Positions 1 to 709 of a stretch of DNA of 5,581 bases are shown here, piece after piece. The stretch is from a virus (Duplodnaviria > Heunggongvirae > Uroviricota > Caudoviricetes), in the IMG/VR virus record IMGVR_UViG_2671180435_000007. One strand, 5' to 3'. The translations under genes and the position numbers were made by a program. The first letter of the stretch is position 1. Every line of letters starts with the position of its first letter. Below the pieces are notes generated by a model, which was given only the letters and a program-made list of their open reading frames with translations, was not told the origin of the DNA and made no database searches.

Positions 1-709
1 GAAGGAGTGTCCGTTAAACTCAGGCTACCTCAGGTTATTCGCTTCTGGGCATGGGCGGATCAACAAATGATAGACGGTAATGCAGATTGTAACGCTCGCG
101 GCGTTACAAAAAGTGCAATAGATCGCATCACTTTTATGTCTGGTTTTGCTGATGCGTTAATTCAGGTTGGATGGCTGGTCGAAAATGACGGAGGGCTTTC
201 TCTACCTAACTTTGAACGTCATAACGGAAAAAGCTCTAAAAAAAACGGGCGGTTACAAACGAGCGAGTAACAAAAATACGCGAACTGAAACGAAAAGGTA
301 ACGCTGCCAGCGTTACACAAACGGATCAAAAAGCGTTACCAGAGGAAGAGGAAGAGGAAGATCTAAATACTGATCTCCCCCTCGCCAAAAACGAGCGTCT
401 AAAAAATTCGAGCCGGAGGCTATTGAGCTGCCCGATTGGTTGCCGGAAACACTCTGGCATGAGTGGGTCCGGTTCAGACAGGCATTGCGAAAACCGATTC
501 GAACGGAGCAGGGCGCTAACGGGGCGATACGGGAACTGGAAAAATTCCGTCAGCAGGGTTTTACACCTGAGCAGGTGATTCGACACAGCATCGCCAATGA
601 ATACCAGGGCCTGTTCGCGCCGAAAGGTGTTCGGCCTGAGACGTTGCTCCGACAGGTTAACACCGTCTCGTTGCCGGACAGTGCGATCCCGCCAGGCTTC
701 AGGGGGTAA
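1..709 (+). pseudogene. Phage replication organizer/initiator protein (YdaU/DnaT-like partner of the DnaC-like loader); 5' end lies outside the window; reading frame broken twice as assembled
   Basis: Frame 1 is open from nt 1 to TAA 268-270 (..FERHNGKSSKKNGRLQTSE*). Frame 3 is open 240-394 (KKRAVTNERVTKIRELKRKGNAASVTQTDQKALPEEEEEEDLNTDLPLAKNERLKN). Frame 2 is open 374-709 (..FEPEAIELPDWLPETLWHEWVRFRQALRKPIR..PPGFRG*). The frame switches fall on an A8 run (238-245) and an A6 run (401-406); adding one A at each gives a single continuous ORF. The frame-2 segment has no ATG or GTG start (only TTG 440, 20 nt from the nearest GGAGG). Stop TAA 707-709 sits 6 nt before the ATG of the DnaC-like gene, the usual organizer-loader arrangement. 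The family name is from memory. Confidence 0.55.
342..361 (+). repeat. GAGGAA hexanucleotide tandem repeat (about 3.3 copies) encoding a poly-Glu stretch in the frame-3 segment of the replication organizer gene
   Basis: gaggaa gaggaa gaggaa ga at 342-361 translates to EEEEEED in frame 3. The reverse strand gives the SSSSSSS run seen in the spurious minus ORF 326..820. Confidence 0.8.

Follow-up and report, generated by a model that had tools for sequence, protein, structure and literature searches.

The first 709 nt of a 5,581-nt viral DNA stretch (the window, here always meaning the whole stretch that was analyzed) carry a replication-initiator gene spread over three reading frames, which raises the question of whether this gene is miscalled, recoded, selectively silenced, or simply decayed. 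A first-pass annotation of the same DNA took it as one gene missing an A at each of two poly-A runs and left two explanations side by side, homopolymer undercalling by the sequencing platform and genuine inactivation of a cryptic prophage with an intact helicase loader. Here, we find that positions 1 to 709 are very probably what is left of a replication-initiator gene that belonged to a Shigella sonnei prophage of the Rac-like lambdoid type, bearing three independent lesions and drifting under neutral decay.

The window is the whole of NCBI contig CXBX01000211.1 from assembly GCA_001254035.1 (the locus handled as L018 is identical to it). Positions 1 to 1991 are 100% identical to the finished genome CP010829.1 of S. 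sonnei FORC_011; neighboring CXB* accessions are listed as S. sonnei from Holt et al. 2012 (PMC5447701). From this sequence identity and the accession series, we infer that the window assembly is also S. sonnei. When the entire window was compared with Rfam at gathering thresholds, no family matched.

The three-frame layout was found again as first described. Frame 1 is open until TAA 268-270, shortly after an A8 run at 238-245, the open stretch of frame 3 begins at 240, and that of frame 2 covers 374 to 706 and ends with a stop codon at 707-709. There is no ATG in frame 2, where the earliest start-like codon is TTG at 440. Frame 3, which had been reported to end at 394, is actually open to 575; frames 3 and 2 therefore overlap by about 200 nt, so that open reading frame (ORF) geometry by itself is unable to locate the second shift. 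On the opposite strand, a 164-aa ORF with a TTG start (326-820, minus strand) shares sequence with both the conserved C-terminal coding region of the initiator and the beginning of ydaV; we take it as a mechanical ORF, with no evidence that it is a gene.

The initiator remnant and the gene that follows it are as follows.

33-709, plus strand: 3' part of the initiator gene (the 685-nt equivalent of a 789-nt gene), now a pseudogene in frames 1, 3, and 2 (alignment).
716-1462, plus strand: ydaV, an intact DnaC-like helicase-loader gene of 248 aa (NF009043; PF01695 IstB_IS21; phrog_50 "DnaC-like helicase loader").

Window positions 1 to 720 were searched with megablast against 5,426 complete Escherichia coli genomes, 681 of which cover at least 80% of the query. 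Query positions 32 to 720 (689 nt) correspond to 697 nt in 38 of the 40 matches listed, the 8-nt difference that is expected because intact genes have A6 and an extra 10 bp. In those E. coli genomes the intact gene is a single coding sequence (789 nt, 262 aa) directly upstream of ydaV. Alignment of the window with it gave exactly three differences: A8 instead of A6, a 10-bp deletion, and positions 1 to 31, which do not align at all. Comparison with three intact annotated 262-aa genes gave the same differences and only one substitution, which is synonymous. When two A's were removed and TCCCCCTAAA was reinserted, the translation was 100% identical to residues 36 to 262 of WP_038340159.1 (E. coli FDAARGOS_944), and with the indels undone 684 of 685 nt matched the FDAARGOS_944 gene, leaving 1 synonymous difference. 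The frame path 1 to 3 to 2 follows from the sizes of the two indels, since +2 and -10 each equal a -1 shift.

All three pieces are colinear with intact 262-aa homologues, and the alignment that the first-pass annotation had asked for found the frame-3 bridging segment present and in its place in them; the proposal of one replication-initiator gene running across three frames is thereby borne out. Its proposed repair fares differently. One additional A at each of two runs does not restore the gene, because 10 bp are deleted at the second site and an insertion sequence, IS600, cuts off the 5' end. With IS600 after nt 107, the change from A6 to A8, and the 10-bp deletion, no uninterrupted initiator ORF is present in the window.

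The first shift lies at the A run.

238-245, plus strand: A8 run, ancestrally A6; a 2-nt insertion that changes frame 1 to frame 3, followed by TAA 268-270 (alignment).

The A6 form is invariant across seven homologues from E. coli, Enterobacter, and Klebsiella phages, down to 43% amino acid identity; judged by these homologues, A6 is the ancestral state and the window run has gained two A's, a pattern that would be expected from homopolymer slippage. It had been supposed that one A was missing here. Intact genes carry A6, so the change is +2 A, and homopolymer undercalling is contradicted because the run is longer than its ancestral form. A related assembly (L015) has A9 at the same run, which may be real run instability or an assembly error.

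The second shift lies a little further downstream, close to another A run.

376-382, plus strand: sole remaining TCCCCCT, the junction of a 10-bp deletion (intact form, TCCCCCTAAATCCCCCT), which changes frame 3 to frame 2 (alignment).
401-406, plus strand: A6 run, the same as in intact genes and no lesion (two intact E. coli genes share TCTAAAAAATTCGAG with the window).

By alignment, the window reads GATC-TCCCCCT-CGCC and the intact gene GATC-TCCCCCTAAATCCCCCT-CGCC. The deleted 10 bp (TCCCCCTAAA) are one copy of a 7-bp direct repeat (TCCCCCT) plus a 3-bp spacer, and loss of this kind between two such repeats is what replication slippage would be expected to produce. The two shifts had both been placed exactly at poly-A runs, which is right for the first site (238-245) and wrong for the second, assigned to the run at 401-406; the A6 there is unchanged in intact homologues, and the real shift is the deletion at 376-382. 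The repaired peptide offered at the time ("...DLPLAKNERLKKFEPE...") is thus in error between 382 and 406 and should read "...DLPLNPPRQKRASKKFEPE...", with LNPPRQKRAS replacing LAKNERL. The other homopolymers cited with it (A6 twice at 2743-2756 and C7 at 2949-2955) are where that annotation put them.

The third lesion occupies the left end of the window and is the reason why positions 1 to 31 do not align.

1-32, minus strand: end of IS600 (IS3 family), the orfA-side inverted repeat ending ...CCTCA, the rest of the element lying beyond the left end of the contig (identity to other IS600 copies).
33-35, plus strand: GGT, the downstream copy of a 3-bp target-site duplication, equal to nt 105-107 of the intact 789-nt gene (sister loci L005 and L017).

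Positions 1 to 33 show 100% identity with the termini of other copies of IS600. Positions 1 to 36 matched an unannotated site in Stx2a phages, where an IS3-family element that encodes orfA (100 aa) and orfB (272 aa) terminates. The IS600 termini read TGAGGT...ACCTCA (TG...CA ends as in known copies), and the transposase ORFs match NF033516 and bear the RefSeq label "IS3-like element IS600 family transposase." Outside the window itself, L005 and L017 hold a full IS600 of 1264 bp at exactly the same site between GGT/GGT flanks, so that a 5' stub ending in ...GGGAAGGT runs into IS600 and then into GGTTATTCGC; the uninterrupted gene reads GGGAAGGTTATTCGC. The element was inserted after nt 107 of the gene, within codon 35/36, and detached the first 35 codons together with the upstream promoter. 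The whole frame-1 ORF had been taken as part of the gene, but this ORF (7-270) begins inside IS600, to which the first 32 nt belong. In three draft contigs (L010, L013, and L014), the same IS600 copy is preceded by another Rac-like module, made up of a 285-aa DUF1376 initiator and a truncated ydaV, instead of the 5' stub; either IS600 mediated a rearrangement of two prophages or scaffolding produced a chimera.

The 87-aa protein predicted from positions 7-270 is diagnostic because it is possible only when the IS600 junction and A8 occur together. An exact-protein look-up recorded this IS600::A8 fusion ORF in 481 assembly-collection blocks, 14 of which hold contigs of >1 Mb (several of 4.8 Mb), and every examined locus that carries it has both A8 and the 10-bp deletion. 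The same A8, deletion, and IS600 junction in many assemblies argue for mutations fixed in a lineage and not for homopolymer miscalls. It is consequently very improbable that the frameshifts are miscalls or an assembly artifact of a short-read draft and that the true gene is intact. Such a reading could draw on the fact that the window is a draft scaffolded contig whose N-gap sizes disagree with a related complete genome, and on the A9 of L015, which may be platform error as well as real run instability. However, all three lesions recur identically in independent assemblies, among them the 4.8-Mb contigs and CP010829.1, the second lesion is a 10-bp deletion with no homopolymer change, and the run has gained bases relative to ancestral A6, the opposite of undercalling. 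With A8 recurring in many independent assemblies that include multimegabase contigs, the undercalling alternative raised in the first-pass annotation is set aside.

Further searches bear on how widely the lesion alleles occur. Exact-pattern scans of the genome_contigs collection found neither the 10-bp-deletion junction nor the IS600/ydaU junction, and a scan of the metagenome_contigs collection did not find the A8 allele; these two collections are evidently without this lineage. Megablast with 33- and 36-nt junction queries gave no match in complete E. coli genomes, a result in which the low-complexity filter may have masked the queries. Independent support for the absence of the lesion alleles from complete E. 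coli genomes comes from the top match, which has 98.1% identity with the remaining difference explained by indels.

Two other readings were considered. According to the first, a functional fused initiator is made by -1 ribosomal frameshifting or by transcriptional slippage at the A8 run (A AAA AAC in frame 1). The change from frame 1 to frame 3 is indeed a -1 shift, A_AAA_AAC fits the canonical form of a -1 slippery heptamer, and there are documented Shigella cases of transcriptional slippage at long runs of A or T, e.g., mxiE. Against this, A6 is read in frame within a single ORF in 7 of 7 intact homologues, so that there is no conserved recoding site; a non-slippery 10-bp deletion comes after A8; and the IS600 insertion costs the gene its start codon, 35 codons, and the promoter upstream of them, all of which make recoding exceedingly unlikely. 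According to the second, positions 1-270 and 440-709 are separate small conserved genes with their own starts, and an 87-aa ORF (7-270) and an 89-aa ORF (440-709, TTG start) are called as such in some assemblies. Their chance of being genes is close to nil, however: the 87-aa ORF begins inside IS600 and has a frameshifted tail, the 89-aa ORF is called on just 8 contigs, and in all intact homologues the two stretches belong, in the same order, to one 262-aa protein.

A decayed copy of one initiator gene therefore stays the preferred reading, and the intact form shows what was lost. The intact protein (encoded at L001:2898-3686) matches phrog_2509 "replication initiation protein" (1-262 versus 1-277/277; E = 1.2e-89). 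Its gene is annotated as "hypothetical protein" and in one record as "phage replication initiator YdaU family protein"; it is labeled "ydaU" in Escherichia phage Rac and "DNA replication protein O" in Escherichia phage vB_EcoS-666R9. Pfam returned no family for the intact 262-aa initiator at an E value of ≤0.01, thus no PF07120 match, and NCBIfam returned only a subthreshold match of the last 19 residues to the DnaT C terminus (E = 0.006; 16 bits versus a cutoff of 201). In BLASTP against the 285-aa DUF1376 (PF07120) initiator of L010 (7176-8033), only the C-terminal 124 aa align, from the PLNPPR motif onward, with 81% identity. The 262-aa and 285-aa types have unrelated N-terminal domains and a common C-terminal 124-aa module, at the start of which (the PLNPPR motif) the 10-bp deletion falls. 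By these comparisons, the initiators of this group look modular, with a variable N-terminal domain, a charged linker, and a common C-terminal module. The YdaU protein of the E. coli K-12 Rac prophage is presumably of the 285-aa DUF1376 type.

Downstream, ydaV starts at 716, 7 nt past the initiator stop at 707-709, and its product scores 510 bits against NF009043 over residues 1-248/248 (cutoff, 389). Sister loci have the order cI-like repressor, cro-like gene, ydaT, initiator, ydaV, and DUF977 gene, which places the initiator just ahead of the loader gene as in a lambdoid early-right operon. The window pseudogene is like the Rac-like/lambdoid initiators of PHROG 2509 in sequence and gene order and differs from them by the IS600 interruption and the two shifts. 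In phage lambda, the origin (ori iterons) lies inside the initiator gene O, and the helicase-loader gene comes next. As in the lambda O/P module, the initiator gene here is directly upstream of a helicase-loader gene, and, as with O, the protein is built of modules, an N-terminal domain being joined through a basic/acidic linker to a C-terminal module. The loader here is DnaC/IstB-like and not of the lambda P kind, and the likeness to O is one of arrangement. By analogy with lambda O/P, the intact initiator would bind the origin and recruit a loader-helicase complex. A literature search found no paper joining ydaU, ydaV, and Rac replication, and as late as 2023 the function of ydaUVW was given as undetermined (PMC11014345).

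Within the remnant, one repeated motif stands out.

89-107, no strand assigned: 19-bp palindrome GTAACGC-N5-GCGTTAC, candidate initiator-binding site or origin element (arms invariant in seven homologues).
298-316, no strand assigned: second 19-bp palindrome GTAACGC-N5-GCGTTAC (arms invariant despite a frame change).
333-339: GCGTTAC half-site (sequence scan).

GCGTTAC occurs five times in the window, always within 89-339, where 0.40 copies are expected, and 0 of 200 shuffles reached five. The palindrome arms are invariant and the 5-nt spacers variable in seven homologous genes (down to 43% amino acid identity). A divergent subfamily translates the second palindrome in another frame, giving V-T-x-x-A-L in one case and G-N-A-A-S-V-T in the other, and retention of the arms despite the frame change points to constraint at the DNA level. 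The palindromes are most likely initiator-binding sites, a hypothesis that draws on these comparisons and on the lambda analogy and that would place an origin within the initiator gene itself, the arrangement found in lambda. They lie within the initiator coding sequence like the iterons inside O, and they mark a candidate origin only. Rac has been reported to carry an active origin, oriJ (PMC3945230). A neighboring block, AAAAGCGTTACCAGAGGAAGAGGAAGAGGAAGAT (window 327-362), is nearly invariant at the nucleotide level among homologues that are otherwise about 68 to 70% identical, and the flanking coding sequence is less conserved.

The block overlaps a short repeat in the linker.

342-359, plus strand: (GAGGAA)3 hexamer repeat, encoding an acidic E6 linker (comparison of related loci).

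In a comparison with L007 to L012, L015, L016, and L020, the GAGGAA copies vary in number while staying in frame: there are 3 in the window and in FORC_011, 4 in L016, 6 in several 4.8-Mb assemblies, and 7 in L012. The repeat is a small variable-number tandem repeat. An array of about 40 GAGGAA copies between N runs in L019 (CXDQ01000265.1, 2300-2700) is probably a gap-filling artifact of a draft assembly. L016 (UARW01000010.1, from a 5.3-Mb assembly) has an independent +1 G frameshift (GAGCCGGGAGGC) in its initiator gene at about 9960-9990, and many of the neighboring genes are split; this looks like an assembly indel error or a separate decay event.

The right part of the window (2528-5581) carries cargo, namely an HsdM-family S-adenosylmethionine-dependent methyltransferase gene and a BsuBI/PstI-family type II restriction endonuclease gene inside which the contig ends. 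Segment 2300-3051 was found in 2 of the 5,426 complete E. coli genomes. Runs of N at 3052-3931 (880 nt) and 3996-4761 (766 nt) are also in the NCBI contig itself and so are apparently scaffold gaps; the matching distances in E. coli FDAARGOS_943 are about 675 and 654 nt. Beyond the stretch identical to FORC_011, 17 mismatches cluster in 1992-2291, and similarity is lost past 2299, where FORC_011 has QueH and hokD-type cargo in place of the restriction-modification genes. The boundary at 1992-2299 is either mosaic recombination or a chimeric join of two Rac-like prophages in the draft assembly.

The order in which the initiator gene was damaged can be approached through two related loci. There is no insertion sequence at the IS600 site in L020, which has A8 and the deletion, or in L015, which has A9 and the deletion; the presence of the indels without the element suggests that the indels preceded IS600, which would probably have arrived last. 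On insertion after nt 107 with its GGT duplication, the 1264-bp element would have separated 35 codons and the prophage early promoter from the rest of the gene. Because the gene is cut off from its promoter, start codon, and first 35 codons and two frameshifts follow, the gene as sequenced should make no functional initiator, and the remnant would be unable to start its own replication. Of the two alternatives raised at the outset, genuine inactivation in a cryptic prophage with its loader intact is the correct one, in agreement with a full-length ydaV and with the state of the prophage in sister genomes, where it is a heavily IS-ridden remnant beside modABC.

Whether the inactivation was itself selected, with initiator loss fixing the remnant in the chromosome along with its cargo or else removing a toxic function, was also considered. 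Three independent lesions in a gene that is otherwise unchanged (1 synonymous difference in 685 nt) could be taken as a sign of selection, as could the intact state of the neighboring ydaV, DUF977, and cargo genes. After the first lesion, however, later ones are neutral, and both IS insertions and pseudogenes build up rapidly across the S. sonnei genome (PMC7373316), which leaves selection an unlikely explanation. Five IS, IS600 among them, have expanded throughout Shigella (Hawkey et al. 2020, PMC7373316), and 50% of S. sonnei pseudogenes are due to IS, with a further 12% having IS and other inactivating mutations (PMC7373316). The present case, IS600 in a coding sequence that also bears frameshift indels, is of the same kind as this IS-driven pseudogenization (PMC7373316) and adds a further instance, in prophage DNA. 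We infer that the lesions are neutral decay of a cryptic prophage, typical of Shigella. The locus is an already understood kind, an IS-disrupted, frameshifted Shigella prophage pseudogene.

For annotation, the locus is best entered as one IS600-disrupted, frameshifted pseudogene and not as two small "hypothetical protein" ORFs, and it shows how a frameshift can be misplaced when it is inferred from ORF geometry alone. The three lesions could serve as S. sonnei lineage markers. A superinfecting phage whose initiator matches could conceivably replicate the remnant, with its palindromes and intact loader, in trans, or the candidate origin of the remnant could titrate the initiator of such a phage; taken together, these two forms of one idea are improbable. 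If true, there would be an effect on phage-prophage interference or on mobilization of the adjacent restriction-modification cargo. The conservation of the palindromes independently of reading frame suggests where the origin of this phage family sits.
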